From contig JBBTTO010000002.1 of the NCBI GenBank assembly GCA_038064195.1, positions 630,615 through 694,614 of the forward strand: a stretch of 64,000 nucleotides of DNA. Direction: 5' to 3'. This DNA comes from Patescibacteria group bacterium. GTDB taxonomy: Bacteria; Patescibacteriota; Microgenomatia; Levybacterales; UBA12049. A program made the translations under genes and the position numbers. This document shows, piece by piece, positions 43,151 to 59,060 of this stretch. Positions within the stretch are counted from its first letter, which is position 1; each line of letters begins with the position of its first letter. The notes beneath the pieces were generated by a model. It ran no database searches. It saw only the letters and a list, made by a program, of their open reading frames with translations, and had not been told where the DNA came from.

Positions 43151-43696
43151 ATGACTCTAAAACCGTTTGTCATTAAAAACGAAAGAGAAACGGCTACTAA
43201 CAACCCCCATCTTGCAGTTGTCGATGCAACACTCATTACTCCAACCAGTAAAGAAGTTACCTGGAGCTATATCAAGACCAACGTTGCTGTTGGGATTCTT
43301 GCCATGGACTCAGATCAAAATGTCTACCTAAAACGGGAATGGCGACTTAACCAAAAATCATTTGTTTGGGAGTTACCGGCCGGATTTGTAGAAGAGGAGA
43401 ATCCGACAGAAGAACAGATACGATCAGCTGCGAATAGAGAACTGCAAGAAGAAGTTGGTATAAAGGCCAAAACGCTTGAAAAACTAGTGACTTTCTATCC
43501 ATCCAACCATATGTCGATGATTGCGCATATATATCTAGGGACTAATCTTAAAGAATCAACACTTGAACCTGATGAGCACGAGTATTTGGAGGTTAAAAAA
43601 CTTCCGATCCGTGAAGCTTATCAACTTGTTACAACTAACCAGATCCCAACCGCCCTGACCCTACTGGCATTTGAAACGATGCTTAAACTTAGGTGA
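43151..43696 (+). CDS. NUDIX hydrolase
   Basis: Nudix box GFVEEEENPTEEQIRSAANRELQEEVGI (GX5EX7REUXEEXGU). Confidence 0.8.
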   Translation: MTLKPFVIKNERETATNNPHLAVVDATLITPTSKEVTWSYIKTNVAVGILAMDSDQNVYLKREWRLNQKSFVWELPAGFVEEENPTEEQIRSAANRELQEEVGIKAKTLEKLVTFYPSNHMSMIAHIYLGTNLKESTLEPDEHEYLEVKKLPIREAYQLVTTNQIPTALTLLAFETMLKLR

Positions 43697-43765
43697 GCCT
43701 GGAAGGATTTGAACCTTCAACCAATACCTTAAGAGGGTACTGCTCTACCGTTGAGCTACAGGCCC
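43694..43765 (-). tRNA. tRNA-Lys(CTT)
   Basis: Reverse complement GGGCCTGTAGCTCAACGGTAGAGCAGTACCCTCTTAAGGTATTGGTTGAAGGTTCAAATCCTTCCAGGCTCA, anticodon loop CTCTTAA. Confidence 0.85.
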
Positions 43766-43851
43766 GCGTAAAATCACTTGGAACGTTCTACGTTCCTGCG
43801 CTCACACGCGGTGAACCGACAAAACTATTATGCTCGTCACGCGGCAAGCCA

Positions 43852-44118
43852 TTATTTTACATTACTTTTAATATAAATGCTTAGTTGTTTGTTTAAGAAC
43901 CTTCTTCCAGACCCACTTTTTAAAAAGCTTTCTCTTCCTGTGGCATCCTCTCTCAACAGGTATGCCTCGTAGTAAATGACCCTCCATGGCCTATATGGCT
44001 TAGTTGATATAACCAAGCCAGAGTTATGTTTTTCAAGTCTCTTATAAACATCATCTGGTGTATATCCTATATACCATTTCCCAGTATTTATGCTTTCCAG
44101 TAAATAAACAAAATACAT
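43852..44118 (-). CDS. small standalone GIY-YIG nuclease family protein (COG2827/URI-domain type)
   Basis: MYFVYLLESINTGKWYIGYTPDDVYKRLEKHNSG…IYYEA…R, the GIY…YIG, R and E/N motifs. Wedged between tRNA-Arg(TCG) and tRNA-Lys(CTT). Confidence 0.75.
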   Translation of the reverse strand: MYFVYLLESINTGKWYIGYTPDDVYKRLEKHNSGLVISTKPYRPWRVIYYEAYLLREDATGRESFLKSGSGRRFLNKQLSIYIKSNVK

Positions 44119-44175
44119 TTAAACTAGCTTGCAACGTGACCGATCGAACTAAATTTTCTGATCGGTTTTACGTTG

Positions 44176-44249
44176 TACGCCTGGAGGGACTTGAACCCCC
44201 GACCCCTTCGTCCGAAGCGAAGTGCTCTAATCCGCTGAGCTACAGGCGC
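44176..44249 (-). tRNA. tRNA-Arg(TCG)
   Basis: Reverse complement GCGCCTGTAGCTCAGCGGATTAGAGCACTTCGCTTCGGACGAAGGGGTCGGGGGTTCAAGTCCCTCCAGGCGTA, anticodon loop CTTCGGA. Acceptor has a G1·U72 pair. Confidence 0.7.
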
Positions 44250-44379
44250 GCGTGAACTCCTCGCTCATTGTAGCAAACTGAGCCTCGCAGAGCAATTAAT
44301 GCATCCTTTCCTACTGGACAATCGAGCTTTTTTCTTCATATACTTTACGAGGCGTTTGTGCCAATAGAATTTCTTCGTT

Positions 44380-45558
44380 ATGAATAAGATCATTGGTATA
44401 ATTTGTTTAACACTCTTTGGATCAGCTCTACTTTTTTCCTACAATCATAAATTGCAACAACCCAAGCTTATTCCCCTTGAGATTTCACCTCAAACAACCA
44501 CCTCCACACAAAAACCAAGAGGGGGAATACTACCTTTTCCTTTAACTGTCCCTAGTGGTTTTCATATAGGACTTTTTGCTGAGGGATTGGGTACCGCAAG
44601 AGACCTCGAGTTTACATCAGGAGGGACACTTTTGGTCTCAGATCCAAATGCTAACACTATCACCGCCTTAAAAGATAACGATGGAGATGGCCAAGCCGAC
44701 ATCAAGAGGGTTATTATCAGTGGCAGGAACGTTGTTCATGGAGTAGCTTTCCATAATGGACAGCTTTATGTCGCTGAGAAAAACAGCGTTGAGCTTTACT
44801 CCTGGGATGAATCCTCAATGCAAGCCACTCGTAACAAAACTGTAGTGACTTATCCGGGGAGTACTAATCACGTTAACCGAACATTAGTTTTTGGCGCTGA
44901 TAACAGAATGTATATCAACTTGGGCTCAACCTGCAACGTTTGTATTGAGAAAAACGCTGAAGAAGGAGCGATACTTGTTGCAAATACTGACGGCTCAGAC
45001 CTGCATATTTTTGCCAAAGGACAACGCAATGCGCCTTTTTTAGCCATTAACCCAATTACTCACCAACTATGGGCAACAGGGATGGGGGGAGACTATCTGG
45101 GTGATAACATACCCCCTGATGAAATTAATATCATTGAGGAAGGTAAGGATTATGGCTGGCCAATCTGTTATGGAGACAAAATTCATGATACTAGCTTTGA
45201 TAAAAAAGTATATCTCAGTGATCCTTGTCGCACCACTATCCCTCCGATTTACCAAATTGCAGCCCACGCTGCTCCTTTAGGACTGGCTTTTGTCCCGAGT
45301 ACTTTCAATACGAGCTGGACGAATGATTTAGTTGTTGCATATCATGGGTCGTGGAATCGCTCAATTCCGATCGGCTACAAAGTTGTCCTTATGAGAGTCA
45401 AAGGAGAATCAATAGGGGGTGAAGAGGACTTAGTTACAGGTTTTCTCAAAGATTCAGTAACCAGAGGCCGGCCGGTTGACGTAATTTTTGATAAAAATGG
45501 CAATTTGTATATCTCAGACGACAAAAGCGGAAATATTTATATTGTTTCATATAACTGA
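44380..45558 (+). CDS. PQQ-dependent sugar (glucose/sorbosone) dehydrogenase-like beta-propeller, N-terminal TM
   Basis: Six-bladed-propeller motifs (…GQLYVAE…, MYINLGSTCNVC, DEINIIEEGKDYGWPICYG, NLYISDDKSGNIYIV) typical of the soluble quinoprotein dehydrogenase family. Confidence 0.6.
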   Translation: MNKIIGIICLTLFGSALLFSYNHKLQQPKLIPLEISPQTTTSTQKPRGGILPFPLTVPSGFHIGLFAEGLGTARDLEFTSGGTLLVSDPNANTITALKDNDGDGQADIKRVIISGRNVVHGVAFHNGQLYVAEKNSVELYSWDESSMQATRNKTVVTYPGSTNHVNRTLVFGADNRMYINLGSTCNVCIEKNAEEGAILVANTDGSDLHIFAKGQRNAPFLAINPITHQLWATGMGGDYLGDNIPPDEINIIEEGKDYGWPICYGDKIHDTSFDKKVYLSDPCRTTIPPIYQIAAHAAPLGLAFVPSTFNTSWTNDLVVAYHGSWNRSIPIGYKVVLMRVKGESIGGEEDLVTGFLKDSVTRGRPVDVIFDKNGNLYISDDKSGNIYIVSYN

Positions 45559-45637
45559 GTCTCTACCTGTATTTTGCATCTTTTATACCTTTTGATATAC
45601 AATATCTCTATCCCTGGGAGAATCTGTCCTCAATCAT

Positions 45638-46219
45638 ATGGAAAAAGTCAAACTTCTTGTTAAAAAAGCCCGCTATTCATATAGAGGCTTGCCGGATAAA
45701 AAGCAGTACGTTGAGTTCTTTACAGCCGTTCTTACCGTACCTGTTCTGCTGACTGTAATTATCCTTAACTTAAATAACCTTCGCGCTAATAATAAAGCGA
45801 ATCAGCCGACTCCCACGCCAGTTCCTGTCAAAACAATTGTCGTTACCGTACCGGTTGCTAACCCCAGTAATAATTCCGCTACAAACCAAACACAACCCTC
45901 GCCTGAGGCGTGCAAAAAAGACATCGGACCGGTAAGTATTGATTTCCCTGAAGAAAAAGACGTGGTCACAGACAATCCTGTCCAAGTCGATATCAACTAC
46001 CTGCAAGGGACATATTGTGCGGTTGTTTGGGCATATAATGTTAACGGCGGTAAATTTTCGGACTTTGACGATAAGTCGATTGCTTTGTATAACCCTCCTC
46101 AGGGTGCAATTACGCTCCAGCTTAAAGTTAAAAGCATTGTGACTGGTGAACAAAAAGTTTTGACACGAACTTTTACTTACTCGGGATCGGGGAACACCGC
46201 CACATCATCTGCCCAATAA
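45638..46219 (+). CDS. hypothetical membrane-anchored protein
   Basis: 193 aa with a TM near residue 30 and a Thr/Pro-rich linker. No motif. Confidence 0.45.
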   Translation: MEKVKLLVKKARYSYRGLPDKKQYVEFFTAVLTVPVLLTVIILNLNNLRANNKANQPTPTPVPVKTIVVTVPVANPSNNSATNQTQPSPEACKKDIGPVSIDFPEEKDVVTDNPVQVDINYLQGTYCAVVWAYNVNGGKFSDFDDKSIALYNPPQGAITLQLKVKSIVTGEQKVLTRTFTYSGSGNTATSSAQ

Positions 46220-46220
46220 C

Positions 46221-48605
46221 ATGCCTAGAAATCTCCGCTCATTCCTTACATTTATTTTCGGATGGCCGCTTTCTCTCATTGCCCTTTTTTTCCTGGCAAA
46301 ATCTTTTTTACCCCACCTCAGCACACTCTCCCAAACAGTACTCCATCCTAACTGGATCTCGCTCTCTCTAGGATTTTTCTGTTTTGTCGGTTATTTTTAT
46401 GTGAGAAGCTTTATCTGGTACAAGCTGCTTTATCTACGGGGGCACGACCTTGATGCTACTGAATCACTTTTTCAGTGGTCCTTTGCCCAACTGAGAAGAT
46501 ACATCCCGGGGAATATCTGGGGGGTCGTTGGAGTCTCACTCCATTTTGAGAAAAAAAACGTATCCCGTAAAGATATTGCCGCCTCTGTTGTGACCGAGTC
46601 ACAACTGGTACTAATAGCGGCAGCCTTCCTCTCACTTTTTAGCCTTCCGCTTGTCATACAACTTGCTCCACTACCACAAATGCTGCTTACGCCTATTAGT
46701 ATTACCGTAATTATGGGTTCTTTGATTTATTTTTTCTCTAAATCAATACTTAAGAAGATTAGTTTTTCTTCAAAAATCACATCTTTTCTCTTTCCGTCGT
46801 TTTCTTTCGAGAAAATTTTATCTTTATGGCTGCTCATGATCATAGCCTTACTCGCATACGGGATCGGGACTTATTTTATTGTTACCAGCTTTACCTATCT
46901 TACTCCGCTTATGTTCTGGGCCTTTGTCGGCTACTTTGTCCTGAGCTTACTCGCCGGCTTTGTTTCCTTTATTACACCAACCGGACTGGGAGTGCGGGAA
47001 GGTGCAATAGCTCTCGGATTGGGGACCGTTATGTCTTCATCACTTGCAGCTTTTATCGCGATTGCAGCCAGAGGAGTGCTTATACTAAGTGAGCTTTTTG
47101 CCATAGGCATTATGTATTTTTTTCATAGGTTCAAAAGCCGACTCCTCCTGCGATGTATCCATTATTTGACAACGTACTCTCATAAGACAGTTCTGCTCTT
47201 CGCGTATGGTTTATTCGCAGGTTATTTTTCCTGGATCAGCATACTGCGCTTTGACAACTACTATGCCGGGAGATTTGATTTGGGGAATATGGAGCAGACT
47301 ATCTGGAATACGCTTCATGGCCACATTTTCGAATTTACCAACCCGAATGGTACTACCATAGTCTCACGACTTGCTTTTCATGCTGACTTTATCTTAGTAC
47401 TCCTGGCACCAATATACGCTCTCTGGCAGGATCCCCGGCTACTTCTTTTAATACAAACAGCTATTTTAGGACTGGGAGCTTTTTTTGTCTATGGATTGTC
47501 TACCTTAGTAACTAAGAACAAAAACGTCTCATTAGTCATATCTTTACTGTATCTTCTCAATCCGAGCCTTGAAAGAGCTGTCATCTACGATTTCCACGCT
47601 GTAACACTGGCAACGACATTTCTTCTCGGAGCTTTTTACTTCATGTACCAAAAAAAATATATCTGGTTCGTGCTTCTGGCAATTTTGGCAGGAATATGTA
47701 AAGAAGAGATTTGGGCAATAGACGCGCTTTTCGGATTGTATATCCTTGTATTCCAAAAGAAAAAAATGCTTGGGAGTACTGTGTTTGCGGGTTCAGTGTT
47801 AATTCTTTATACTCTCATCTGGAAAATTATACCCCAGGCAGCGGGCAGTCAGCACTTCGCTCTGTCTTACTATTCTAACGGGGAAGTGACTGACAGTCCG
47901 ACCAGCCTTATCAAACTCTTTCTTTTCTCACCCCTTAAGACTCTGTCACTCTTGATGGATTCAGCCCGCCTGATGTATCTTAACCAGCTTCTTTTGCCCA
48001 TCGGCTACCTGGGACTTTTAGCTCCGCTTTTTCTTATCTTTGCTTCACCTGATCTCGTAATCAATCTCTTGAGTTCAAAAGCAGAGCTACACCAGATCTA
48101 CTATCAATACTCATCAGCTATCACGCCCTTTCTTTTCATTTCTACAATTTTCGGAGCTGCTTTCGTACTTAAAAGATTAAAAAAAATCCCTGAAATCGTA
48201 CTCCTTGCCTATTTGGTCTGCGCAGGTTTGTATTCTGCATATCTTTACGGCCCGTTGCCCGGAGCAAAATCACCTAATCTTGATATGATCACTAAGCCCA
48301 TGCCGGATCGAATAACCATCAACAGACTATTAGGAGCTATCCCTTCTCAGTACTCAGTCTCCACCAGTAATAGCCTTGGTTCACACGTCACTCACAGGCA
48401 GTATCTCTTCACTATGCCATATGGCTGGGATAAAGCTGATTATATTATCTTTCTTATGAATGAGACCAATGCTTATCCCTCTCCCCAAGACCACAAAAAG
48501 CAAGCCGAAATTCTCTCCCGTAACCCTGAGTACACCAAGTACTACGACGACGGAAATGTTAAAGCTTTTCGCAAAAAGACCATCACCGCTCCGACCGGCC
48601 TCTGA
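46221..48605 (+). CDS. large polytopic membrane protein (flippase-like / LPG-synthase-type TM region fused to a DUF2079-like membrane domain)
   Basis: 794 aa and hydrophobic throughout. Family assignment by architecture resemblance; tentative. Confidence 0.5.
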   Translation: MPRNLRSFLTFIFGWPLSLIALFFLAKSFLPHLSTLSQTVLHPNWISLSLGFFCFVGYFYVRSFIWYKLLYLRGHDLDATESLFQWSFAQLRRYIPGNIWGVVGVSLHFEKKNVSRKDIAASVVTESQLVLIAAAFLSLFSLPLVIQLAPLPQMLLTPISITVIMGSLIYFFSKSILKKISFSSKITSFLFPSFSFEKILSLWLLMIIALLAYGIGTYFIVTSFTYLTPLMFWAFVGYFVLSLLAGFVSFITPTGLGVREGAIALGLGTVMSSSLAAFIAIAARGVLILSELFAIGIMYFFHRFKSRLLLRCIHYLTTYSHKTVLLFAYGLFAGYFSWISILRFDNYYAGRFDLGNMEQTIWNTLHGHIFEFTNPNGTTIVSRLAFHADFILVLLAPIYALWQDPRLLLLIQTAILGLGAFFVYGLSTLVTKNKNVSLVISLLYLLNPSLERAVIYDFHAVTLATTFLLGAFYFMYQKKYIWFVLLAILAGICKEEIWAIDALFGLYILVFQKKKMLGSTVFAGSVLILYTLIWKIIPQAAGSQHFALSYYSNGEVTDSPTSLIKLFLFSPLKTLSLLMDSARLMYLNQLLLPIGYLGLLAPLFLIFASPDLVINLLSSKAELHQIYYQYSSAITPFLFISTIFGAAFVLKRLKKIPEIVLLAYLVCAGLYSAYLYGPLPGAKSPNLDMITKPMPDRITINRLLGAIPSQYSVSTSNSLGSHVTHRQYLFTMPYGWDKADYIIFLMNETNAYPSPQDHKKQAEILSRNPEYTKYYDDGNVKAFRKKTITAPTGL

Positions 48606-48644
48606 CTCTTGTACATTAAGTCAGATCTTAGGTATGATAGATCT

Positions 48645-49472
48645 ATGCTTAATGTCATAAAAGCAGACGGTACGATTGAACCATATAGTGAGGAAAAGGT
48701 TAAAAACTCTATTAAAAGAGCGGGAGTATCACCTGAACTCCAGACAAAAGTGCTGTCTGACATTAAAGCAAAACTTTACGATAATATCCCGACCTATGAT
48801 ATCTATGGACTGATCACCAGTGCCCTCTCTCACTCCCCGGAGCCGTACAGTAAAGCCCGCTATAGTCTCAAACAAGCCATCATGCTCCTGGGTCCGACAG
48901 GGTATCCATTTGAGGATTTTGTTGCCCGGGTTTTTGAGGAGCACGGGTACCAAACCCAAACCAGACTCATCCTTAACGGACGATGTGTTACCCATGAAAT
49001 CGATGTACTAGCCGAAAAGGACGGTAAAAAAAGCATGGTTGAGGCAAAATTTCATAACAATCCGGGGACGCGTTCAGAAGTCCAGGTTGCTCTCTATGTT
49101 AAAGCACGCTTTGATGATGTGAAAGACAGGTACTCATTTGATGAGGCCTGGATTGTTACCAACACCAAAACGACCATGGATGCCAATTCTTACGCCGAGT
49201 GCAACAATATGAAAGTTATCAGCTGGAATTTTCCTGAAGGAGGAAGCCTGAGAGACCTTATCGAGTCAAGAGAGCTACACCCCGTTACTCTGTTAACAAC
49301 CCTGAACGCCAAACAAAAAGCTCACCTTTTGGCTAATCATACTATTTTGTGCAAAGATCTTAAAAAAAATCCGCAATTACTTGACGTATTAGGCCTGTCT
49401 CATGAGGAAAAGGAGCAGACCACATCTGAAGTGGCCTATATCTGCCAAAACACTCACCACCACGCCCCCTAA
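48645..49472 (+). CDS. ATP-cone domain fused to a Mrr-like PD-(D/E)xK restriction-endonuclease-fold domain
   Basis: N-terminal MLNVIKADGTIEPYSEEKVKNSIKRAG… (ATP-cone). Central …HEIDVLAEKDGKKSMVEAKFHN… (D…ExK nuclease core). Internal start preferred over track start 48609. Confidence 0.55.
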   Translation: MLNVIKADGTIEPYSEEKVKNSIKRAGVSPELQTKVLSDIKAKLYDNIPTYDIYGLITSALSHSPEPYSKARYSLKQAIMLLGPTGYPFEDFVARVFEEHGYQTQTRLILNGRCVTHEIDVLAEKDGKKSMVEAKFHNNPGTRSEVQVALYVKARFDDVKDRYSFDEAWIVTNTKTTMDANSYAECNNMKVISWNFPEGGSLRDLIESRELHPVTLLTTLNAKQKAHLLANHTILCKDLKKNPQLLDVLGLSHEEKEQTTSEVAYICQNTHHHAP

Positions 49473-49521
49473 TCCTACACACTCATGCAGCTTAACGGTA
49501 TTTTTCTTAGCCGGCAAGCTA

Positions 49522-51170: not shown

Positions 51171-51740
51171 CTACCTATACTTTCTGATAACACTGGCGAC
51201 TATCCCTCCGATGACGAGGCTTTCTTTGGGCTCTATGACGGGATAGTCAGGATTGGCGGGGGCGAGATAGATCCTGCCGTTTTGTTTTTGGAAATACTTG
51301 ACCGTCCATTCGCCATCGACATTGGCTGCGACTATATCACCGTTACGGGGGGGTGCGTCTTTTTCTACGATGACGATGTCTCCATCATTGATCCCTTCTC
51401 CGCTCATCGACTCTCCTCTGACGGTCAGTGAGAAAATATCTCCCGGCATATCAAGGAGATATTCATAGAAATCAATGCTATCTCCCAAGGATCCCTCCAC
51501 AGGGGCCGGATAGCCTGCCCTGATCAGACCCAAGTGGGGGATATGAAAGAGTTTCTTGGGAAGGAGCTTACCCTTTTCATCCTTCGCCAAGATATCTACC
51601 TCGACCAATTTATTGACGAGATAAACTGCCGCGTTTTTAGATGAGTAGCCGAACATATCACAGATTTCCTGATATGAAGGCAGGCGACGCTGTACTTTAT
51701 AAAATTTACGGAGTTTTTTAATTGCTTTCTCTAAATCCAT
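51171..51740 (-). CDS. second LexA-like S24 peptidase repressor (LexA/UmuD/CI family paralog)
   Basis: Start taken at MDLEKAIKKL… (51740); the track ORF extends to 51800 across a GC hairpin. wHTH (YQEICDMFGYSSKNAAVYLVNKLVEVDIL), Ser motif GESMSGEGI, Lys motif VKYF. Confidence 0.75.
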   Translation of the reverse strand: MDLEKAIKKLRKFYKVQRRLPSYQEICDMFGYSSKNAAVYLVNKLVEVDILAKDEKGKLLPKKLFHIPHLGLIRAGYPAPVEGSLGDSIDFYEYLLDMPGDIFSLTVRGESMSGEGINDGDIVIVEKDAPPRNGDIVAANVDGEWTVKYFQKQNGRIYLAPANPDYPVIEPKESLVIGGIVASVIRKYR

Positions 51741-51880
51741 AAAATAATTTTCCCTTATAATCCCTCTCCTTGAAGGAGAGGGCAGCCTGCCTGCAGGCAA
51801 CGGGTGAGGTCTGCTTTAAGCCTCACTGTACATTTGTATTGTCTTTCGTCACCCCTGGTGATGCACTCTATTGTACGAAT

Positions 51881-51896
51881 GTACAAGAAGTATAAT
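51881..51896. promoter_or_regulatory. perfect-arm 16-bp palindrome TTGTACGAATGTACAA: candidate operator overlapping the predicted −10/+1 of the lexA-like/polY operon
   Basis: Arms TTGTAC/GTACAA are exact reverse complements. On the minus strand a TTGACG-18-TATACT promoter-like pair lies immediately 5' of it. Confidence 0.4.
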
Positions 51897-52009
51897 GTGT
51901 ACGTTCGTTCAACGTCAAGATGACAAAGTAGATCAATATGGATAAAAAAATGAAGAGAATGAGTAGGCGAGGCGGACCAATAAAGGTCCGCCTCGCCACA
52001 AAAGTTGCT

Positions 52010-52555
52010 CTATGGGATATCGGGCTTCTCATCTGCGATTCTCTGTTCCCGTTCAGAAAGTGCAGACGCTGGTAGCGTCTCTGATGGAGATGTTGATTCC
52101 TCTCTAGGTGCCAGAGGATCACCAACCACTCTCACCACTTGAGCACGAACCTTTTCGAGATTGACTCCGAGTGACTCGAGTACGCCGGCTCCAATTCCTT
52201 CGCCTTCCCGGACAAGTCCGAGCAAGATGTGCTCAGTGCCGATGTAGTGATGGTTGAGCTGACGAGCTTCATCAATTGCAAGCTCGATAATCCTTTTGGA
52301 TCGAGGAGTAAGGCTGATCTCACCAACGACAGCTTCTTCTCCACGCCCAATGATGAACTCAACGGCAGAGCGAACTTTATGTAACCGAACTCCCATGTTT
52401 TCCAGGATGCGTGCTGCCACCCCATCTCTTTCCCGAACGAGTCCGAGGAGGAGATGCTCAGTGCCGATATAACCATGGTTGAAGCGCAACGCCTCTTCCT
52501 GAGCCAACGTGAGCACCTTTCGTGCTCGACGTGTGAATTTATCAAAATCAGACAT
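52010..52555 (-). CDS. standalone Clp N-terminal (Clp_N double-repeat) domain protein
   Basis: Two Clp_N repeats: FTRRARKVLTLAQEEALRFNHGYIGTEHLLLGLV and LTPRSKRIIELAIDEARQLNHHYIGTEHILLGLV. ATG at 52555 preferred over track start 52807. Confidence 0.7.
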   Translation of the reverse strand: MSDFDKFTRRARKVLTLAQEEALRFNHGYIGTEHLLLGLVRERDGVAARILENMGVRLHKVRSAVEFIIGRGEEAVVGEISLTPRSKRIIELAIDEARQLNHHYIGTEHILLGLVREGEGIGAGVLESLGVNLEKVRAQVVRVVGDPLAPREESTSPSETLPASALSEREQRIADEKPDIP

Positions 52556-52833
52556 GAGATTGGTCCTTTCAACGTGAGCGGCTTGCCTTTTCTCCCAATT
52601 GAGCAAAGGTCGCCGTACAAAAACTCTATGCTTGATAAAATTTTTATACAGCAACCCTTGCAAGAGCAACTTGTTAAGGTACGTAATAAGAGAAAGAACG
52701 CAATTGTTCTTTCCTTGGAGGGAGTATAGCAAATATAAGATGCAAAATAAACCTATAGTCAGTATGTTTTGGGTTGATTCGCCTTGTAGCTTATTTGACA
52801 AGCCCAAAAGCCATATCTATACTTCAAAAGACT

Positions 52834-54393
52834 ATGCCTCTTGCAAATGAGACACAACCATCGCCAGCTACTGACTTTTCTGCCCAGGTAGTTGATATAC
52901 CTAAATTGGAGTCTACACTTACGAGTCTTACATCTTTTACCAAGGAAAGACCACAGATTGTTCCAGGAGCTATTGACACAACAGCGAGAGAATTCATTGT
53001 CAAAGCAGCTGAAGAGGCAAATACTTTTAAGACAAACTTTGAGAAGCAAGAAAATATTCTTACTCCTTCTGAAAGAACAAGAATTAGTGAATGGGTGCGT
53101 AAAGATGAAGGCGAGACAGGGATGCATCAATTAGAACAATTGGGTAGAGCCTGCATCCGTCTCTGGAGCAGCGTGGGGAGATCAACAGGCACAGAAACAG
53201 AGAAAAAAATGTCAGGGCTTCCGGGACATGATAAAAGACATTTACTCCAAGACTTAACTGCCGGGTTACAATTTCGAAATGATGTCGTAAGTGCAGAAGC
53301 TGGAAACAAAGATGAATATCAGAAAATCGGACTGATTGGTTCGTTACTTCATGATGTAGGTCGGTTAGCGGAGGAACGGGTTGTCGGAACACCTGTAGGA
53401 GGAGAGCAAGGAGACAAACATACTGAACTTTCATTCTATATCGCTAAGCAATTATTTGATGCTTTCCCTCAACTTGATCAGGCAGTAAGAGATCATATTC
53501 TTTATTCAATTCTAGTACATCAAAAATGGCCAAATAAATCAGAAGAGGAAACAATAGGCTATCAAATGACCATGAATGAACCGCTTAACCGAAGCGTAAT
53601 GGGTTCCGATAGACTTCAACTGGTAGGCCCCGAAGCAATTCTACGCTTTATTGGCTTTGATATTGGAGAATCAGACAAGCCACTGGATTTTGATACCAAA
53701 GTCAAACCAGAACGCAAAGAGGCATTAGATAACAAAGCTGAAACAGATCTGTCAGAACATATTGAATTCTACATGCGTAACCTTCTTCCAGTTGAAGTGC
53801 CGGGCAGTCCGCAAGCAGCCAATAACGCTGTTAATCAGCGTTGTAATCTACTTCGGGCTATTTCAGGTGCGTATCTTTGGTTATCATCAAGTGATGAAAT
53901 CCGTAAGCAAATTTTCGCCCCAGAGCTAGCCCGGGACAGAGGAGAAACAGTTGATGAGGTTAAATTAGCGACCAATAAAAAGCGTATTCTTTCTAAGGAA
54001 ATTTGGGGGGAAATTAAAGGTCAGATAGCTGCCATTGAGTTTCCTGATATTCAAACCGGAATAAAAACGGAAGTTCAACAATTGACGAGCACAAAATCCC
54101 TTGAAGAGATTGTTATGAGTTTTGTTAAGGCCGAAAATGCATCAACTACCCAAAAAGGGATAACAAAAATTAAAGAAAAAGTAGGGAAGATAACTGACCC
54201 AGCAGCTACTGAGCGACTAAAGGTAGGGATCGGATACGCTCTAGCTATGCGTGATCGACTTTCTAGAAATACTTTAAAAACGATCTCTGCGATGAATAAT
54301 GACCTACCCCACTTCCCGGCGCATAGTTTGGAAAAATCATTCTCTCAATTCGTCCTCAATAACTACCCAGTAACTTTACAGCAAGCAACCTGA
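52834..54393 (+). CDS. large HD-domain protein (divergent)
   Basis: H…HD…H…H…D pattern: GHDKRHLL, GSLLHDVGR, DKHTEL, ILVHQK. About 300 aa of C-terminal sequence without recognisable motifs. Start at MPLANE preferred. Confidence 0.5.
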   Translation: MPLANETQPSPATDFSAQVVDIPKLESTLTSLTSFTKERPQIVPGAIDTTAREFIVKAAEEANTFKTNFEKQENILTPSERTRISEWVRKDEGETGMHQLEQLGRACIRLWSSVGRSTGTETEKKMSGLPGHDKRHLLQDLTAGLQFRNDVVSAEAGNKDEYQKIGLIGSLLHDVGRLAEERVVGTPVGGEQGDKHTELSFYIAKQLFDAFPQLDQAVRDHILYSILVHQKWPNKSEEETIGYQMTMNEPLNRSVMGSDRLQLVGPEAILRFIGFDIGESDKPLDFDTKVKPERKEALDNKAETDLSEHIEFYMRNLLPVEVPGSPQAANNAVNQRCNLLRAISGAYLWLSSSDEIRKQIFAPELARDRGETVDEVKLATNKKRILSKEIWGEIKGQIAAIEFPDIQTGIKTEVQQLTSTKSLEEIVMSFVKAENASTTQKGITKIKEKVGKITDPAATERLKVGIGYALAMRDRLSRNTLKTISAMNNDLPHFPAHSLEKSFSQFVLNNYPVTLQQAT

Positions 54394-54394
54394 T

Positions 54395-54775
54395 ATGACC
54401 AAAGGAATTTTATGGATTGTACTGATAGAAGAATCCAAACAAAAATTACTTGAAACCGTTCCTGCCAAATATCCTGTGCTATTTGCAAATCACATCACAC
54501 TTTTCTACGATGTGGAATTGACCGGAGAATGGAAAGGACTGGTAGAGAAGCGAATAGAGCTTAGTTTGAAGACACATTGTTACGACCACCAGATCCAGGC
54601 TGTCACAGTCGATATAGGCGATTTGCCCTGTCAAAATCTTTTTCCTCATATCACAATCTCTGCTCAAGAGGGGATTAAGCCTTTCATATCAAACGCAATG
54701 CTTCAGGGAGTTCATAGTTCACAGTATGTAAAAGAAAGTCTGCAGGGAGTAGTTGAATTTGCAGAGTTTGAGTGA
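54395..54775 (+). CDS. 2H phosphoesterase superfamily protein (LigT / cyclic phosphodiesterase-like)
   Basis: Two H-x-T-x motifs about 60 aa apart (ANHITLFYD and FPHITISAQ) in a 126-aa protein. Starts 1 nt after the HD gene stop. Confidence 0.5.
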   Translation: MTKGILWIVLIEESKQKLLETVPAKYPVLFANHITLFYDVELTGEWKGLVEKRIELSLKTHCYDHQIQAVTVDIGDLPCQNLFPHITISAQEGIKPFISNAMLQGVHSSQYVKESLQGVVEFAEFE

Positions 54776-54776
54776 C

Positions 54777-55328
54777 TTATTGCGTCGGGTCGAGGAGGAC
54801 CCAGTTGCGTGATACTGCGGGTTCACTGCAGAGGTTGCGATTAAAACAACATGGTCTACGCATCCCTTTATTGAGTTTGTCGAGTGCAATCTCAATATGT
54901 TTTTGACGGGTCTCCGGAGTTTTGACAGCACGTATCCATCTGATCCAATCCCAACGCGCTAGTGGAGTTATATCTTTCCAGAGTTCCTCGGCTTTGTGAG
55001 AAGTAGACAACGCTTTTTTTAAATCCTCAGGAACTTCCGGTTCTATCCACTCTTTGGTAGGTGTAAGCGAAACTTGTACAGTATCGCCAGCTCTAGCATG
55101 AGCGTCATCAAGCAACTTTTTATCAGGGGCAAACCAGTGGCTCGGTTTGAACCCTGCTCCATACTTTCCATCGGGTTCAAGCAAGGTCTTGAAAGGAACA
55201 CCGTTGAGGGTACCTACTACCATTGTCATACCACGGGATGGGAGCTTTGCAGAGGCATACTCTGGTAGTCTCAGGATAATCCAGGAGTTGATTTTGAAAA
55301 GCGTAGCTTCAAATTGAATTGGAGGCAT
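54777..55328 (-). CDS. DUF1905 / YdeI-OmpD-associated family protein (locally GC-rich)
   Basis: 183 aa. Family call by resemblance (…GMTMVVGTLNGVPFKTLLEPDGKYG…WIRWIRAVKTPETRQKHIE…). Confidence 0.6.
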   Translation of the reverse strand: MPPIQFEATLFKINSWIILRLPEYASAKLPSRGMTMVVGTLNGVPFKTLLEPDGKYGAGFKPSHWFAPDKKLLDDAHARAGDTVQVSLTPTKEWIEPEVPEDLKKALSTSHKAEELWKDITPLARWDWIRWIRAVKTPETRQKHIEIALDKLNKGMRRPCCFNRNLCSEPAVSRNWVLLDPTQ

Positions 55329-55405
55329 ATGAATACAGTTTAGTTTAAGGACGTCGCGTCAAACGCGACTCCTCGTCAATCTCGGGGGAACCGAGTTTGA
55401 CTCGT

Positions 55406-55444
55406 GGGTAGGGTAGCGAATGATGTCCGGACTTATTATAGCAA
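55406..55444. repeat. 39-nt repeat, copy 1: GGGTAGGGTAGCGAATGATGTCCGGACTTATTATAGCAA; reverse complement carries TTGcTATAAT
   Basis: Identical to 56762..56800. Lies about 80–115 nt upstream (minus sense) of the DUF1905 gene start. Confidence 0.7.
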
Positions 55445-55505
55445 ATTAGGGCTTAAAGAACTTGAGTTTTATAAACAATCTTTTACAGCACTGTAATCCA
55501 AAGAA

Positions 55506-56291
55506 TTAATAATTATTAGAACATTCATGCCCATAAATCTCTTTAGGGATTTTGTATTGCTGAACAGGCTTACAAGAAATTATATTTTGTCCAGTCCACA
55601 CTTCTTGCCATTGTCCATTGACCTTTACTGCATACCAAGCTGCACCTCCAGCATATCCACCCACTCCACCAGTAGCATAGTTTCCTACTAACTTACTTAC
55701 ACTCACCATAGTATTCGGGTCATTTTTAGGATTAATCACGGGAGCTAACTCTTTTCGCCAAGCCAATTCTTGTTCATCAACTGTGCCGCAAAAAAAACTT
55801 CCAAAAGGGTCAGACTGAGGAGACAAGCCAATTAAACACTTAACATCATTAAGTTCATATCCATAATTTGTAGCTAAGGAATTTTTCTTATCGTTTGCCC
55901 TACTAAGATTAAAGCCATTTTTTACAAAGAAATTTTCACCCGTAGACTGGAGTGGCTGTAAGGATGTTTCTGTAATCTCACTGATATCAGAAAAGTTACC
56001 ATATTTGCCCATATAATTGTTTGCAAATGTACCAATTCCAAAGCGATACCCTTTTAAAGGAACAACCTGATTATTTGCATCAATCCAATCAATACTTTTA
56101 GTCTCAATGATTGGAGCTGTAGTCGAAATAGTCCTTTGTAAGGAGGATAGTGTTGACTGTGCTGACGTAGTGGTTGAATTTGAAGCTGTGTTATTGTTTC
56201 GTAGCAAATATATCCCTAATAATCCCAGAAGAACAATTAGAGCTATTCCTAATAATTTTGTGTTTCCTATTTTTGTCTTTTTCTTTCCCAC
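55506..56291 (-). CDS. hypothetical secreted/membrane-anchored protein
   Basis: 261 aa with an N-terminal TM (LLGIALIVLLGLLGIYLL), Ser/Thr-rich linker and Gly/Tyr-rich C-terminus. Confidence 0.45.
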   Translation of the reverse strand: MGKKKTKIGNTKLLGIALIVLLGLLGIYLLRNNNTASNSTTTSAQSTLSSLQRTISTTAPIIETKSIDWIDANNQVVPLKGYRFGIGTFANNYMGKYGNFSDISEITETSLQPLQSTGENFFVKNGFNLSRANDKKNSLATNYGYELNDVKCLIGLSPQSDPFGSFFCGTVDEQELAWRKELAPVINPKNDPNTMVSVSKLVGNYATGGVGGYAGGAAWYAVKVNGQWQEVWTGQNIISCKPVQQYKIPKEIYGHECSNNY

Positions 56292-56375
56292 AAATTCAGT
56301 ATGACATAGAAATAGTAAAAATCAATAGAATTGCCAGGTTCGAGTGCGGTCTTGGGGTGAAGTAGTTTGATATAT

Positions 56376-56672
56376 TTACCTGAGGTTAATTTTACTTTTA
56401 CTTAGAGTTTTAAGTTTTTGTAAGTCGCCATTGATTAGCGCCTCTTTTTTAGCTCTCGACCAGCCTTTAAGCTGAGTTTCTCGATGCATTGCTTCAAGCC
56501 TAGTAGCATATTCCTCACTATAATCAAGCTGGAAACCATGACTATCTTTTGTGAACTTTGCTGCTTTCCAATCTTTTGTTATATGCTGCTTGGTCCGAGC
56601 GTTAATATTATTTGTTTGGCCAACATATAGCTCGTTAGAAGAACTTCGAAGAATGTAGACAAAGTAGGGCAC
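56376..56672 (-). CDS. small standalone GIY-YIG nuclease family protein (GTG start)
   Basis: PYFVYILRSSSNELYVGQTNNINARTKQH…. More divergent than the other two paralogs. AAGGAG lies 14 nt upstream of the GTG. Confidence 0.65.
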   Translation of the reverse strand: MPYFVYILRSSSNELYVGQTNNINARTKQHITKDWKAAKFTKDSHGFQLDYSEEYATRLEAMHRETQLKGWSRAKKEALINGDLQKLKTLSKSKINLR

Positions 56673-56761
56673 AGATAGTTCTTCGACTCCTTTCAGTCGC
56701 TCAGAACATTCGCCTCGCTTTTAAATGGTTGGAAACCATGAGCGAGCAAGGCGAGTCGAAT

Positions 56762-56800
56762 GGGTAGGGTAGCGAATGATGTCCGGACTTATTATAGCAA
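56762..56800. repeat. 39-nt repeat, copy 2 (identical to 55406..55444)
   Basis: Lies about 90–130 nt upstream (minus sense) of the GIY-YIG gene 56376..56672. Confidence 0.7.
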
Positions 56801-56846
56801 TCTCAAAGCACAAGAGTTAGTGTTTTATCAAACGGCATTTCCAAGT

Positions 56847-57500
56847 TTATGAGGACTTTTCGTTGTAAATCTTATATTTGCCGTCACCAATAATGCTTAC
56901 TTTGTTGTCTTGCACTAGGACTGCAGCATAGTCATCAACAGCGTAAATTTGATTTTGTGTTGTTTTACTATATTCCCCAACCGACTCATAGGAAATCATA
57001 TCTGGAACGTGGGGTGAAAACTCAAAATCAACAACACTTAATCCTGTAAAATCTTGCATTCCTATATTATTTACATCTCCAGGCTCAACACCAGCAATTG
57101 CGATAGTTGGAGTCACTACAATCCCACCTGCACTTACACCAATATATAACTTATTCTCTGAAAGAAACTTTTTCAGTGCTCCTTCAAATCCACTTTTTCG
57201 CATCCAATCGAGAAGAAAAAAGGTGTTTCCACCGTTCACAAAAAGCATATCCTTTGAAGAAAGCAATTTCTTAAGCTCATCTTGATTTATGTTTCGTAAG
57301 TCCAGGTTTTCAATATTGGTAATGCCTTGTTGGCTAAGTTGGTCTCTAAATTTCCCAAACCAATCTGGGTTACTCTCGTCACCGTATGCTGCTGTTATGT
57401 CAAAGGCAACAGAATACTCCGACGCTGGTTTCTGAAGAAGGGTAGGAAATATATCAACTATTTTTCCTCTTATACCATTGGATGTAAGAAGAAGCGTCAT
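56847..57500 (-). CDS. peptidase S51 (dipeptidase E-like)
   Basis: FVNGGNTFFLL and GVSAGG motifs. 217 aa. Confidence 0.7.
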   Translation of the reverse strand: MTLLLTSNGIRGKIVDIFPTLLQKPASEYSVAFDITAAYGDESNPDWFGKFRDQLSQQGITNIENLDLRNINQDELKKLLSSKDMLFVNGGNTFFLLDWMRKSGFEGALKKFLSENKLYIGVSAGGIVVTPTIAIAGVEPGDVNNIGMQDFTGLSVVDFEFSPHVPDMISYESVGEYSKTTQNQIYAVDDYAAVLVQDNKVSIIGDGKYKIYNEKSS

Positions 57501-57577
57501 ACTTGAAATTATAGCAGAAGTTCAAATCCCATCTTGGGATGAAATAGTCTGATACACAAACTCGAGGCTAAAAAACT

Positions 57578-57653
57578 TGGGGTGGCTGACGGGGATCGAA
57601 CCCGCGACATTCAGGACCACAACCTGACGCTCTACCACTGAGCTACAGCCACC
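57578..57653 (-). tRNA. tRNA-His(GTG) with genome-encoded G−1 and CCA
   Basis: Reverse complement GGTGGCTGTAGCTCAGTGGTAGAGCGTCAGGTTGTGGTCCTGAATGTCGCGGGTTCGATCCCCGTCAGCCACCCCA. The extra 5' G pairs with C73. Anticodon loop TTGTGGT. Confidence 0.85.
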
Positions 57654-57723
57654 AAGTAACCCTGAAAGTATATCATATCTGAGGCTAAGATGCTGTATTT
57701 AATAACCTAAAATAAGAGGCAAG

Positions 57724-58551
57724 CTAGACTAATGCTCTTCCCATATGTACACTAGCTACAGTAATAGGAATAGGATGTGCTGACAAAGATGCGCCCACTG
57801 TGGCATAGGCCTCATCGGTAAATGCTAACAACCTGTCACTTGGTACCATATCTGTAACACGAGACACAGACGTGTGAAATATGTCATCCCATCCATATGG
57901 AAAACCAAATCCTCCGGGAAAGTCTATTTGCTCTTCTCGCTCAAACACAGTCGCAGCTCTTCCCAAAACATGCTTAGTCTTGCCTGGGTTGTCTGGATCC
58001 GCGAAGTTAGTACCAACAATTGCCTCAATTGCCTTTCGCGCCTTATAAGGGGCTCCTTGCTCATCATCGAATTCACCGGCACAAATATAACTATTTGGCC
58101 CAACCACCAATGTATCCATATGGAAGGTCAAACCAGTAAGATATTTGGATATCAACCCCAGATGAGACCTATTTGACAGGAGATAAGCATCCATTTGTGC
58201 TTGATCCTCTGGAGAAAGATCTTTATACGGACTATTGAATAGAGTTACGTGAGGCATCAAGTCTCCTGCTCCAGCAAAGACTGCAGGAACTTCATAGGTA
58301 GAAGCAAGCTCTTGTAGAGGACCAACCACTTGTTCAATTACTTGTTGCTGGGATGGCGCTTCAAGCTCAAACCCGCCCGCAAAAAGATTCTTAAATGAAT
58401 CAGGAAACCCAGCAAATGGAGTATATTTGCCACTTTCAAATGCTTCTCGCCCTTGCTGACGTCTGAGGTTGATTTTGGCGGTATAAGCTGCCTGCATTGC
58501 ATCCACCACCGCTTCATCTCTTACCGGATAAACTCTCTGCTCTGCTGACAT
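57724..58551 (-). CDS. hypothetical protein with two H-x-T/S-x motifs (possible 2H phosphoesterase fold)
   Basis: PHVTLFNSP near residue 95 and IFHTSVSRV near residue 225. Otherwise no recognisable domain. Divergent from the third GIY-YIG gene. Confidence 0.4.
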   Translation of the reverse strand: MSAEQRVYPVRDEAVVDAMQAAYTAKINLRRQQGREAFESGKYTPFAGFPDSFKNLFAGGFELEAPSQQQVIEQVVGPLQELASTYEVPAVFAGAGDLMPHVTLFNSPYKDLSPEDQAQMDAYLLSNRSHLGLISKYLTGLTFHMDTLVVGPNSYICAGEFDDEQGAPYKARKAIEAIVGTNFADPDNPGKTKHVLGRAATVFEREEQIDFPGGFGFPYGWDDIFHTSVSRVTDMVPSDRLLAFTDEAYATVGASLSAHPIPITVASVHMGRALV

Positions 58552-58637
58552 ACGAGGGGATTATATGAAAGATTGGGTAGAGAAGCAAATTAACAAGAGT
58601 TTGCGAGGCTAAGGCTAACTTGCTACAATACCTATAC

Positions 58638-58701
58638 GCGCCTGTACCCGCCTGCCATCCGGCTGGAGCCGTCAGGCGACTGGCGGGCAGGGCTCAGCGG
58701 A
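58638..58701 (+). repeat. split duplicate of the tRNA-Arg(TCT) 5' end (GCGCCTGTA … GCTCAGCGGA), interrupted by a 45-nt GC-rich imperfect palindrome
   Basis: Removing 58647..58691 (CCCGCCTGCCATCCGGCTGGAGCCGTCAGGCGACTGGCGGGCAGG) leaves 19 nt identical to positions 1–19 of the tRNA at 58946. It ends 1 nt before the GIY-YIG ATG. Confidence 0.6.
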
Positions 58702-58702
58702 C

Positions 58703-58939
58703 ATGTTTTATACATATGTATTAAAGAGTTTATTCGATAATAAGTTATACGTGGGTTTTACTGATAATATAGAACGAAGGTTAGACGAGCATAATAATGG
58801 TCTAGTAACTGCAACAAAATCGAGGAGACCTTTAAAATTAATCTATTATGAAGCTACTCTTAGTCAAGAAAAAGCCATAATGAGAGAGAAATATTTTAAA
58901 TCTGGTTTCGGGAGAAATTTTTTGAAAACAAGAATATAA
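58703..58939 (+). CDS. small standalone GIY-YIG nuclease family protein
   Basis: MFYTYVLKSLFDNKLYVGFTDNIERRLDEHNNGLV…IYYEA…R. Clear paralog of 43852..44118. Stop 6 nt before tRNA-Arg(TCT). Confidence 0.75.
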   Translation: MFYTYVLKSLFDNKLYVGFTDNIERRLDEHNNGLVTATKSRRPLKLIYYEATLSQEKAIMREKYFKSGFGRNFLKTRI

Positions 58940-58945
58940 TTATTT

Positions 58946-59018: not shown

Positions 59019-59021
59019 CTC

Positions 59022-59059: not shown

Positions 59060-59060
59060 G

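Follow-up and report, generated by a model that had tools for sequence, protein, structure and literature searches.

Why should very small genes for GIY-YIG nucleases lie next to transfer RNA (tRNA) genes in the genome of a member of the Patescibacteria? The question is raised by a stretch of 64 kb of contig JBBTTO010000002.1 (hereafter the window, to which our coordinates refer), in which a first-pass annotation had noticed three such genes and had suggested either a family of tRNA-targeting selfish elements or a tRNA-linked function. The answer that we favour is the former. We consider it likely that the three genes, here called GIY1, GIY2 and GIY3, encode the nucleases of small selfish cassettes colonising the tRNA units of Patescibacteria, with GIY2 belonging to a mirror-image form, and this is supported by the tRNA linkage across genomes, by insertion polymorphism between relatives and by the scars that the cassettes leave.

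The three genes are all present, namely GIY1 at 43852-44118 on the minus strand (88 amino acids, aa), GIY2 at 56376-56672 on the same strand (98 aa) and GIY3 at 58703-58939 on the plus strand (78 aa). Each of them encodes a single-domain protein, with no other Pfam domain, that matches the GIY-YIG family PF01541 well above the curated cut-off of 22.6 bits (51.2, 63.9 and 58.9 bits, E = 1.6e-13, 1.7e-17 and 6.3e-16, for GIY1, GIY2 and GIY3, respectively), and a tblastn search of the window revealed no further copy in its 64 kb. The proposed paralogy of GIY1 and GIY3 is borne out by an identity of 47%, that between GIY2 and GIY1 being 33%. The tRNA calls of ARAGORN and Rfam are concordant and give nine tRNAs per 64 kb; each GIY gene shares the strand of its neighbouring tRNA, a point not made in the first-pass annotation. 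The minus strand carries, in this order, tRNA-Arg(tcg) (44175-44249), 56 nucleotides (nt), GIY1, 86 nt and tRNA-Lys(ctt) (43692-43765), which is the arrangement already described except that the first spacer had been given as 57 nt. On the plus strand GIY3 is separated by only 6 nt from tRNA-Arg(tct) (58946-59019), directly 5' of which it had been placed. The nearby protein genes (NUDIX, sugar dehydrogenase, peptidase S51, AI-2E transporter and OmdA) are unrelated in function. The consistent tRNA linkage that had been claimed is not compelling from the window alone, where there are nine tRNAs and two of the three genes are adjacent to tRNAs, but is overwhelming across genomes.

For the GIY3 family, which includes GIY1, 80 loci (numbered, like all the loci retrieved in this work, with the prefix L) were collected from contigs of one genome per species, with tRNAs called by ARAGORN; 77 of them were assessable, and 1361 other open reading frames (ORFs) of at least 100 aa in the same loci served as the control in a Fisher test. 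A tRNA on the same strand starts within 25 nt of the stop codon in 46/77 members of the family and in 4/1361 control ORFs (p = 4e-61), and lies within 120 nt downstream in 58/77 as against 15/1361 (p = 3e-72). The GIY2 family was represented by 80 metagenome loci, 70 of them assessable, retrieved with a 4-sequence alignment, since an 8-sequence one was too diverse for retrieval. Here the tRNA is found on the other side of the gene: a same-strand tRNA ends within 250 nt upstream in 20/70 members versus 13/469 control ORFs (p = 2e-11), and none of the 70 has a tRNA directly downstream. Both families thus lie nearer to tRNAs than chance would place them. The tRNAs occupied by the GIY3 family represent 20 anticodons and 14 amino-acid identities, and tRNA-Gln accounts for 13 of the 20 upstream tRNAs of the GIY2 family.

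What the cassette consists of can be read at the GIY3 locus, whose parts are, in order:

58601..58629, plus strand: promoter-like site TTGCGA-17 nt-TACAAT, TG-extended, preceding the tRNA-Arg 5' fragment
58638..58646, plus strand: tRNA-Arg 5' fragment, nt 1-9, GCGCCTGTA, identical to nt 1-9 of the tRNA at 58946 (an automated parse agrees)
58647..58691, no strand: hairpin, a 45-nt GC-rich imperfect palindrome, CCCGCCTGCCATCCGGCTGGAGCCGTCAGGCGACTGGCGGGCAGG, splitting the tRNA fragment at nt 9/10
58692..58701, plus strand: tRNA-Arg fragment, nt 10-19, GCTCAGCGGA (sequence reading and automated parse)
58703..58939, plus strand: GIY3, 78-aa GIY-YIG nuclease with every family-invariant residue present
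58946..59019, plus strand: tRNA-Arg(tct), intact (ARAGORN, Rfam)
59022..59058, plus strand: hairpin and T-run closing the unit (inverted repeat I16), terminator-like by eye, with a negative terminator scan

Nucleotides 1-19 of tRNA-Arg are therefore present in two copies at 58601-59019, and the hairpin (-14.1 kcal/mol when folded as DNA, z = -2.3) interrupts the upstream one. The split tRNA fragment and the palindrome are the decisive features, and neither had been remarked in the first-pass annotation. The parts are closely packed, with a gap of 8 nt between the promoter-like site and the tRNA-Arg fragment, a single base (C) between tRNA-Arg nt 19 and the ATG of GIY3, and the spacer TTATTT between its TAA stop codon and the intact tRNA. 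The promoter-like site is presumed to be the tRNA promoter, now driving GIY3 as well as the tRNA, and the motif TTGCTACAAT of its region also occurs upstream of tRNA-Arg(tcg), at 44267-44276.

The same layout recurs in the family: a tRNA promoter, a 5' fragment of a tRNA split by the hairpin, the GIY ORF and the intact copy of the same tRNA. A GC-rich palindrome, with the consensus CCCGCCCGCCATCGCAAGCATGAGCTTGCTCAGGCGTTGCGGGCGGG or the variant CCCGCCTGC...GCGGGCAGG, lies at most 170 nt upstream of the start codon in 45 of the 63 tRNA-linked loci. At 34 loci a fragment beginning with tRNA nt 1 stands to the left of the hairpin and its continuation to the right, the source being the tRNA 3' of the ORF, and in 29 of these 34 the two halves are exactly contiguous in tRNA coordinates. 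The hairpin is inserted after nt 3-21 of the tRNA, most commonly after nt 9, and the split fragment ends at nt 12-32, never past the anticodon loop. Neither a fixed target motif nor a target-site duplication was seen at the hairpin junctions, which are clean and have varied flanking bases. What is doubled is the 5' part of the tRNA, sometimes together with the leader (as at L041 and L076) and sometimes the whole tRNA, and it is the upstream copy that is truncated and split. With the downstream copy left intact, the host does not lose its functional tRNA, and a strong tRNA promoter is available for expression of the nuclease; the native promoter is found upstream of the cassette in the tRNA-Lys(ttt) group as well as at GIY3.

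Departures from this form are informative. Loci of the tRNA-Lys(ttt) group have the hairpin downstream of the ORF instead, before the tRNA; at L006 and L008 a fragment with its hairpin is found on either side of the ORF, and hairpins on both sides of the gene are also seen at L058 and L069. Tandem units are present at L035, L003 and L061, and hairpins nested in hairpin loops at L068, L061 and L044. One fragment derives from another tRNA than the downstream one (L017), one unit of the form fragment-hairpin-fragment-tRNA lacks the ORF altogether (L018:667-840), and at L040, L055 and L037 an old hairpin-bearing remainder of a tRNA persists behind the functional one, the acceptor stems of the old and new tRNA differing at L040. 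Targets other than tRNAs are also occupied: at L021 an epimerase gene has the same layout at its 5' end, with a replacement start codon, in two Desulfobacterota (L058, L069) the ORF lies within the hairpin loop, and at L060, L070-L073 and L077 it is flanked by 12-20-nt inverted repeats inside four-helix-bundle genes. The split 5' fragments, the leftover tRNA copies, the tandem units and the non-tRNA targets all speak for insertion events and not for a housekeeping operon.

As regards these last loci, L060, L070, L072, L073 and L077 come from genomes outside the Candidate Phyla Radiation (CPR), and their inverted repeats include ACCCTGTTAAAT/ATTTAACAGGGT. The interrupted non-CPR genes resemble those for 23S rRNA intervening-sequence proteins, and the interruption lies at the motif ..SIPSNIAEG...

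One objection would be that the ORF is a passive hitchhiker, tolerated in tRNA leaders where it enjoys a strong promoter and shuffled by ordinary recombination of tRNA segments, with the nuclease and the hairpin both idle. Indeed, homologous recombination of the host could by itself yield all the forms described above, and target specificity is not evident. The hairpin, however, is conserved well above synonymous sites and is inherited together with the ORF. At one site shared by two loci (L029/L079) the hairpins are identical at 42/42 positions, while the ORFs are 76% identical and their third codon positions 58%; at another (L032/L055) the values are 48/49 for the hairpin, 73.5% for the ORF and 51% for third codon positions. 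In a neighbour-joining tree the hairpin type clusters with the protein clade, and of the hairpin-like matches in about 1.1 Mb of loci, 58 are near GIY genes and few are genuine solo copies, mostly in tRNA remnants. The hairpin is therefore under selection and co-inherited with its ORF. An idle nuclease would also sit badly with the invariance of the catalytic residues and with the pairing of ORF and palindrome at non-tRNA sites and in other phyla, and we see only a slim chance that the hitchhiking explanation is correct.

A tree of the 78 protein residues is star-like and, set against the identity of the flanking tRNA, displays no more than local clusters by tRNA and by hairpin type. In an attempt to delimit the mobile unit from closely related copies in different contexts, only five pairs of loci with at least 80% DNA identity were found, all of them at the same tRNA type.

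If the cassettes are mobile, their presence should vary among close relatives, and this was examined in genomes located through the AI-2E transporter gene next to GIY3, by which the nearest relatives are Levybacteria (percentages are identities). In L163 (81%) the tRNA-Arg(tct) site reads GCGCCTGTA, a hairpin with the same arms at nt 9/10, GCTCAGTGGATAGG, a broken GIY gene and the intact tRNA; an internal deletion has left the first five and the last 18 codons of the gene (REKYFKTGFGKRYLKTRI) readable. In L162 (84%) the promoter abuts tRNA-Arg(tct) with no cassette, and a frameshifted GIY gene lies 108 nt 3' of the tRNA. L164 and L165 (both 86%) have no tRNA there and a toxin-antitoxin pair instead. 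The site is hence intact in the window, degenerate in L163 and empty in L162, and the genes, far from being syntenic everywhere, exhibit the very states that a cycle of gain, decay and loss predicts. Most tRNA types, moreover, were found both with and without a GIY gene among all the loci; for tRNA-Gly(tcc), L163 has a GIY gene 9 nt after the tRNA, and the window has the identical tRNA without one. Two further features of the window belong here:

28046..28213, plus strand: empty site, with the promoter CTTGTCAAG...TGGTATAAT, an 84-nt leader and tRNA-Lys(ttt), and neither GIY gene nor hairpin (syntenic comparison)
27245..27264, minus strand: scar-like feature at tRNA-Glu(ttc), in which a second copy of tRNA nt 1-10 (GGCGCCATCG) precedes the mini-hairpin CCCGCAAGGG

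The tRNA-Lys(ttt) site is filled in the syntenic loci L002, L024 and L033, which share with the window a divergent gene for a mechanosensitive-channel-like protein followed by the promoter CTTGTCAAG...TATAAT, and also in L009, L013 and L066, whose synteny is unchecked. The tRNA-Glu(ttc) gene is at 27146-27220 on the minus strand, the duplicate of its nt 1-10 lying 44 nt upstream; the feature resembles the ORF-less unit of L018 and looks like the scar of a lost cassette.

At the GIY3 site of the relatives, the pair that stands where the window has GIY3 and tRNA-Arg(tct) is a BrnT/CopG toxin-antitoxin (L164:2195-2756 and L165:2216-2756). The tRNA-Arg(tct) unit is divergent from the AI-2E gene in L162:2740-3004 and L163:2560-3004 and has the opposite orientation in the window (58600-59060), which implies that promoter, fragment, hairpin, GIY3 and tRNA were inverted or re-inserted as a block.

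These comparisons also bear on the second proposal of the first-pass annotation, according to which the proteins would act on tRNA or pre-tRNA (in processing, repair or quality control) and be co-transcribed with their substrates. A gene whose presence is optional at every tRNA type, and which in close relatives is decayed or missing, hardly fits such a role, which the same-strand position inside tRNA transcription units would otherwise favour, as would the hint at RNA roles given by one GIY-YIG/TrmH fusion in the literature (PMC1564403). The same architecture is met, furthermore, at L021, where the gene concerned encodes a protein, and within genes of the four-helix-bundle family. The hairpin is found in both orientations (20 versus 17), which argues for a role at the DNA level over a strand-specific role in RNA. 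The closest characterised relatives of the proteins act on DNA, and SsnA, discussed below, shows no RNA binding. We therefore regard a cellular function in tRNA metabolism as highly improbable.

The GIY1 locus is a less typical representative of the selfish cassettes that we propose. It comprises:

44175..44249, minus strand: tRNA-Arg(tcg), first gene of the Arg-GIY1-Lys unit (ARAGORN, Rfam)
44119..44174, minus strand: spacer of 56 nt containing a hairpin richer in AT, ACCGATC...GATCGGT (DNA fold -9.1 kcal/mol, z = -2.9)
43852..44118, minus strand: GIY1, 88 aa, a divergent GIY3-family member (47% identity, long branch, C-terminal extension, invariant residues kept)
43692..43765, minus strand: tRNA-Lys(ctt), 86 nt 3' of GIY1

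The spacer between GIY1 and tRNA-Lys(ctt) (43766-43851) forms two hairpins on folding. The order Arg(tcg), GIY, Lys(ctt) recurs in L005 and L034, which carry a Lys(ctt) fragment and a hairpin in the place of the window's 44119-44174 spacer; orthologues of the GSDH gene beside GIY1 (63% identity) are found without the entire tRNA cluster.

GIY2 belongs to another subfamily, and the features around it are:

56376..56672, minus strand: GIY2, 98 aa, UPF0213-type, of a subfamily other than that of GIY1 and GIY3 (family profile against 1ZG2, E = 1.3e-24)
56686..56765, minus strand: hairpin module upstream of GIY2, (CC)ATTCGACTCGCCTTGCTCGCTCATGG...GCGAGGCGAATGTTCTGAGCGA...GGAGTCGAAG (sequence reading and fold)
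56761..56800, minus strand: copy A of a 40-nt sequence repeated perfectly in direct orientation, TTGCTATAATAAGTCCGGACATCATTCGCTACCCTACCCA, with a -10 box and 30 nt of leader, 88 nt upstream of the GIY2 start
55405..55444, minus strand: copy B of this repeat, before the OmdA/DUF1905 gene (54777-55328)

The family matches BH0048- and EF2693-type proteins with E = 1.3e-24 and 2.8e-18. GIY2 had been reported to lie near tRNA-His behind a repeated 39-nt element, and the tRNA is in fact 905 nt upstream (57578-57652, minus strand); the repeat, however, is a perfect 40-mer, and the proximity is not a direct link, a peptidase S51 gene intervening. It is the family that reveals the connection with tRNAs. 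A module preceding the ORF is conserved, (C)ATTCGACTCGC...GCTCGCTCAYGGCTATAGCC...GTCCTGAGCGA...GAGTCGAAGGA, and often starts directly at a tRNA 3' end; one nearly the same as that of GIY2 begins right there in L099, L102, L082, L090, L091, L097 and L124. The 3' end of tRNA-Gln (about 18 nt) is repeated after the ORF in L090, L091, L097, L050 and L059. The layout of the GIY2 family therefore mirrors that of GIY3, consisting of an intact tRNA, a hairpin module, the ORF and a displaced 3' fragment.

As for the 40-nt repeat, its two copies enclose GIY2 and a 261-aa ORF without known family, and it may be either a duplicated promoter-leader target or a common type of promoter and leader in this genome, not specific to the cassette. 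It begins with GCTATAATAAGTC-G--CATCAT, and the promoter region of tRNA-Glu (about 27290-27315, minus strand) begins alike (GCTATAATAAGTCAGACCATCAT). In a set of GIY2-family loci (L084, L100, L101, L107, L109, L111 and L116) the sequence GGTCC(T/G)AGACCG-CC-GCTCAGC stands just before the hairpin module and often again after the ORF; it behaves as the 3' end of another RNA gene targeted by this family.

The proteins themselves look like active nucleases, as judged from their catalytic-type residues and from a structural model of GIY3. The AlphaFold2 model (mean predicted local distance difference test, pLDDT, 96.8; strands 2-9, 15-20 and 44-52) has the beta-beta-alpha-alpha-beta-alpha core of GIY-YIG enzymes with their conserved Tyr, Tyr, Arg, His and Glu, and these catalytic-type residues (Y5, Y16, R26, H30 and E62) are invariant in 24 GIY3-family sequences. 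The length of these proteins is constant at 78 aa; between CPR classes they are 65-75% identical, and 23 positions never vary. The best Foldseek matches were UPF0213 BH0048 and the nuclease domains of Slx1 (TM-score 0.69-0.74, root-mean-square deviation 1.8-2.1 Å, 27-32% identity), that with the I-TevI catalytic domain being clearly poorer (TM-score 0.50). Slx1 is a structure-specific nuclease for branched DNA. In sequence the GIY3 family is only a distant relative of the UPF0213 structures (E = 3.7e-10 and 7.8e-08).

Several other identities were considered and rejected. A group I intron or another known RNA finds no place, given that Rfam detected only tRNAs, at gathering thresholds in the whole window and at E <= 1 in 55300-59300; nor do the proteins appear to be group I intron endonucleases, the downstream tRNA being uninterrupted and TIGR01453 scoring about 21-23 bits against a cut-off of 56. 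PADLOC assigned no anti-phage defence function to GIY1 or GIY3 and gave only sub-threshold partial matches for GIY2. A phage-borne element was likewise discarded, with one match among 2.9 million viral contigs and only a weak N-terminal match in PHROGs.

The closest described parallel is provided by the Ssn nucleases (CDD model cd10448), single-domain GIY-YIG proteins, about 94 aa long, that are encoded next to hairpin repeats on their flanks (Chenal et al. 2025, PMC11893778). SsnA binds a hairpin in single-stranded DNA (ssDNA) and cuts just upstream of it in a strand-specific manner, being inactive on double-stranded DNA (dsDNA) and RNA, and its authors called the NTS-ssnA-NTS layout IS-like, that is, similar to an insertion sequence (PMC11893778). 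Our cassettes share with Ssn a single GIY-YIG domain of about 80-100 aa, a hairpin inverted repeat of 20-50 nt on one or both sides and the co-variation of hairpin and protein. They differ in the loops of their hairpins, which are longer and compound, in the two orientations that these hairpins take, in the interruption of a duplicated tRNA 5' fragment by the hairpin, in the position of the unit inside a tRNA operon, and in their number, several being present per genome with few dispersed solo repeats. The SRM consensus HGTCWYN(0-2)YYVSBRHN(0-5)WNVSBRGN(0-2)RNCYNB had no match in the ±300-nt flanks of the 80 + 80 loci, and its sole match in the window, at 46597, is unrelated. The Ssn paper mentions neither tRNA nor Patescibacteria (PMC11893778). 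We do not claim that the cassettes, known here from their sequences, are Ssn systems; by analogy, they probably work as Ssn-hairpin pairs do.

This analogy invites the idea that an Ssn-like system has been domesticated, the host keeping nuclease and hairpin to control recombination or natural transformation at tRNA loci, for instance through cleavage of hairpin-bearing ssDNA that enters the cell, with the scars as relics of an old mobile origin. In Neisseria SsnA modulates transformation, and domestication was proposed by its authors (PMC11893778); the high conservation and constant length across CPR classes and the strong constraint on the hairpin would be well explained. Presence, absence and decay among close relatives would not, nor would tandem copies or the several copies per genome from different subfamilies, and the hairpins are mostly found beside GIY genes (58 near against a handful solo) and not dispersed. 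On balance, domestication seems to us unlikely.

How, then, might selfish cassettes of this kind persist and spread? In the model that we propose, the unit is a palindromic hairpin plus a one-domain GIY-YIG ORF of 78-98 aa, placed between a tRNA promoter and its tRNA; the promoter would transcribe the ORF, and RNase P would free the tRNA from the shared transcript. By analogy with the Ssn nucleases, the nuclease probably recognises the hairpin of its own cassette when this is single-stranded or extruded, and might create recombinogenic ends by cutting adjacent to it, much as the related Slx1 acts on branched DNA. A GIY-YIG enzyme is a hydrolytic nuclease incapable of strand transfer, so that the joining must be left to host recombination. 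Spread would proceed by homologous recombination or homing, with the conserved tRNA sequence providing the homology arms and DNA taken up, or circular intermediates, acting as vehicle. A Campbell-type single crossover between a tRNA gene and a circle of the form fragment-hairpin-fragment-ORF, if it falls left of the hairpin, would yield the standard form; the same crossover at a site already bearing a hairpin would produce the double-flanked form, and its repetition the tandem arrays. The hairpin would always be found in the non-functional copy because a crossover to its right would kill the tRNA. Copies would later decay and be lost, which would give the intact, degenerate and empty states. 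As to naive tRNAs, it is possible that in tRNA genes with strong transcription the non-template strand, when folded, is cut near the D-arm, the region where the hairpins sit in the tRNA fragments. An intact target tRNA beside the cassette and the occupation of at least 20 tRNAs fit poorly with a single long recognition site.

Some points weigh against this interpretation. The unusual conservation and constant length of the GIY3 family could reflect selection at the level of the host rather than pure selfishness, and the choice of the 80 loci by best protein match favours intact ORFs. The targeting of at least 20 tRNA genes cannot be explained by a 78-aa catalytic domain alone, and the founder event, that is, the first arrival at a new tRNA type, is not explained. 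Moreover, classical homing immunity is inapplicable, since the intact downstream tRNA does not differ in sequence from the disrupted copy. How many target switches took place is uncertain, as the tree built on 78 residues is poorly resolved. No vector is evident, given the single relative in viral contigs, and neither cleavage activity nor specificity is on record for the GIY3 family. Lastly, the GIY1 locus shows neither a GC-rich hairpin nor a recognisable tRNA fragment.

Further known systems share single traits with the cassettes. The bacterial Slx1-like or UPF0213 proteins (BH0048, 1ZG2; EF2693, 1YWL; E. coli YhbQ type) have the same minimal domain without a C-terminal Asn extension; that group has been regarded as one of vertically inherited repair proteins (PMC1564403), whereas the GIY2 and GIY3 families behave as insertion-polymorphic cassettes tied to tRNA gene ends. 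The gene segB of phage T4 is a free-standing GIY-YIG homing gene among tRNA genes (PMC2330249), and the likeness extends to preferential inheritance with the flanking tRNA DNA through recombination. Presence/absence polymorphism and degenerate copies at an orthologous site, as expected of a free-standing homing gene, were found in our case too. SegB differs in being a larger, multi-domain, site-specific dsDNA endonuclease of a phage, with no hairpin module and no duplication of a tRNA 5' part. In fungal mitochondria, mORFs carry a replacement gene end (Allomyces atp6; Glomus atp6, atp9, cox2 and nad3; PMC3630166). As in our cassettes, an endonuclease ORF inside a gene brings a new gene end and leaves the displaced native end as a fragment. 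The mORFs, however, replace the 3' ends of protein-coding organelle genes and encode LAGLIDADG or large GIY-YIG enzymes, whereas the cassettes are bacterial, affect tRNA 5' ends (3' ends in the GIY2 family) and have a palindrome at the junction. With the IS200/IS605 and REP/RAYT elements they have in common a nuclease paired with single-stranded hairpin DNA, the lack of target-site duplication and hairpin-only derivatives; those elements rely on HUH/Y1 transposases, which act through covalent intermediates. GIY-YIG ORFs have also been noted, unexplained, in non-intron insertions of CPR rRNA genes (PMC11270868).

In the literature that we searched, an incomplete collection, no description was found of the tRNA-fragment/hairpin/ORF/tRNA architecture or of the tRNA linkage. 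Hairpin-associated single-domain GIY-YIG nucleases and gene-regenerating endonuclease ORFs are known, and what appears to be new is that the tRNA gene ends of CPR bacteria are a widespread target. We may go one step further, tentatively and with rather more doubt than conviction, and suggest an undescribed class of bacterial mobile element that needs no intron, intein, integrase or transposase, and in which a hairpin palindrome and a minimal GIY-YIG nuclease recognising it enter essential RNA genes at either the 5' or the 3' end of tRNAs. Such elements would be made harmless by regeneration of the gene end and would spread between species by virtue of tRNA conservation, their nuclease attacking structured single-stranded DNA of tRNA genes.

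Cassettes of this kind would explain the many tiny genes annotated as "GIY-YIG nuclease family" in Patescibacteria and the frequent assembly breaks there, and tRNA genes would join rRNA genes among the sites of invasion in CPR genomes. They would represent a third route into essential genes without host death, besides introns and inteins and the integrase-mediated replacement of 3' ends. The layout also flags hairpin-split pseudo-tRNA fragments that annotation pipelines overlook, offers hundreds of natural nuclease-hairpin pairs as candidate sequence- or structure-specific ssDNA nucleases like Ssn, and challenges the view of bacterial Slx1-like and UPF0213 proteins as vertically inherited repair enzymes.

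With regard to assembly, the GIY matches of L001, L003, L009, L016, L020, L031, L037, L047, L051, L056, L072 and L077 are no more than about 250 nt away from a contig end, which suggests that metagenome assemblies break at these multi-copy cassettes or at the tRNAs flanking them.

Two minor observations concern the rest of the window. Between the terminator of tRNA-Arg(tct) and the AI-2E promoter, the approximately 170 nt of 59060-59230 are GC-richer and structured, holding a T-arm-like GTTCGAATCCCC on the minus strand and the hairpin GGGTCGCGGGGATCGCGAAGCGATAACCTGTGACTC; Rfam gave no match in this interval, which may represent either the decayed remains of an old tRNA or a small RNA of unknown kind, and similar hairpins are found 3' of tRNAs in L045, L049 and L051. 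The 265-aa ORF at 52010-52807 (minus strand) contains an 82-nt direct repeat (52176-52257/52401-52482, 73% identity), probably an internal duplication in the protein and unrelated to the cassettes.

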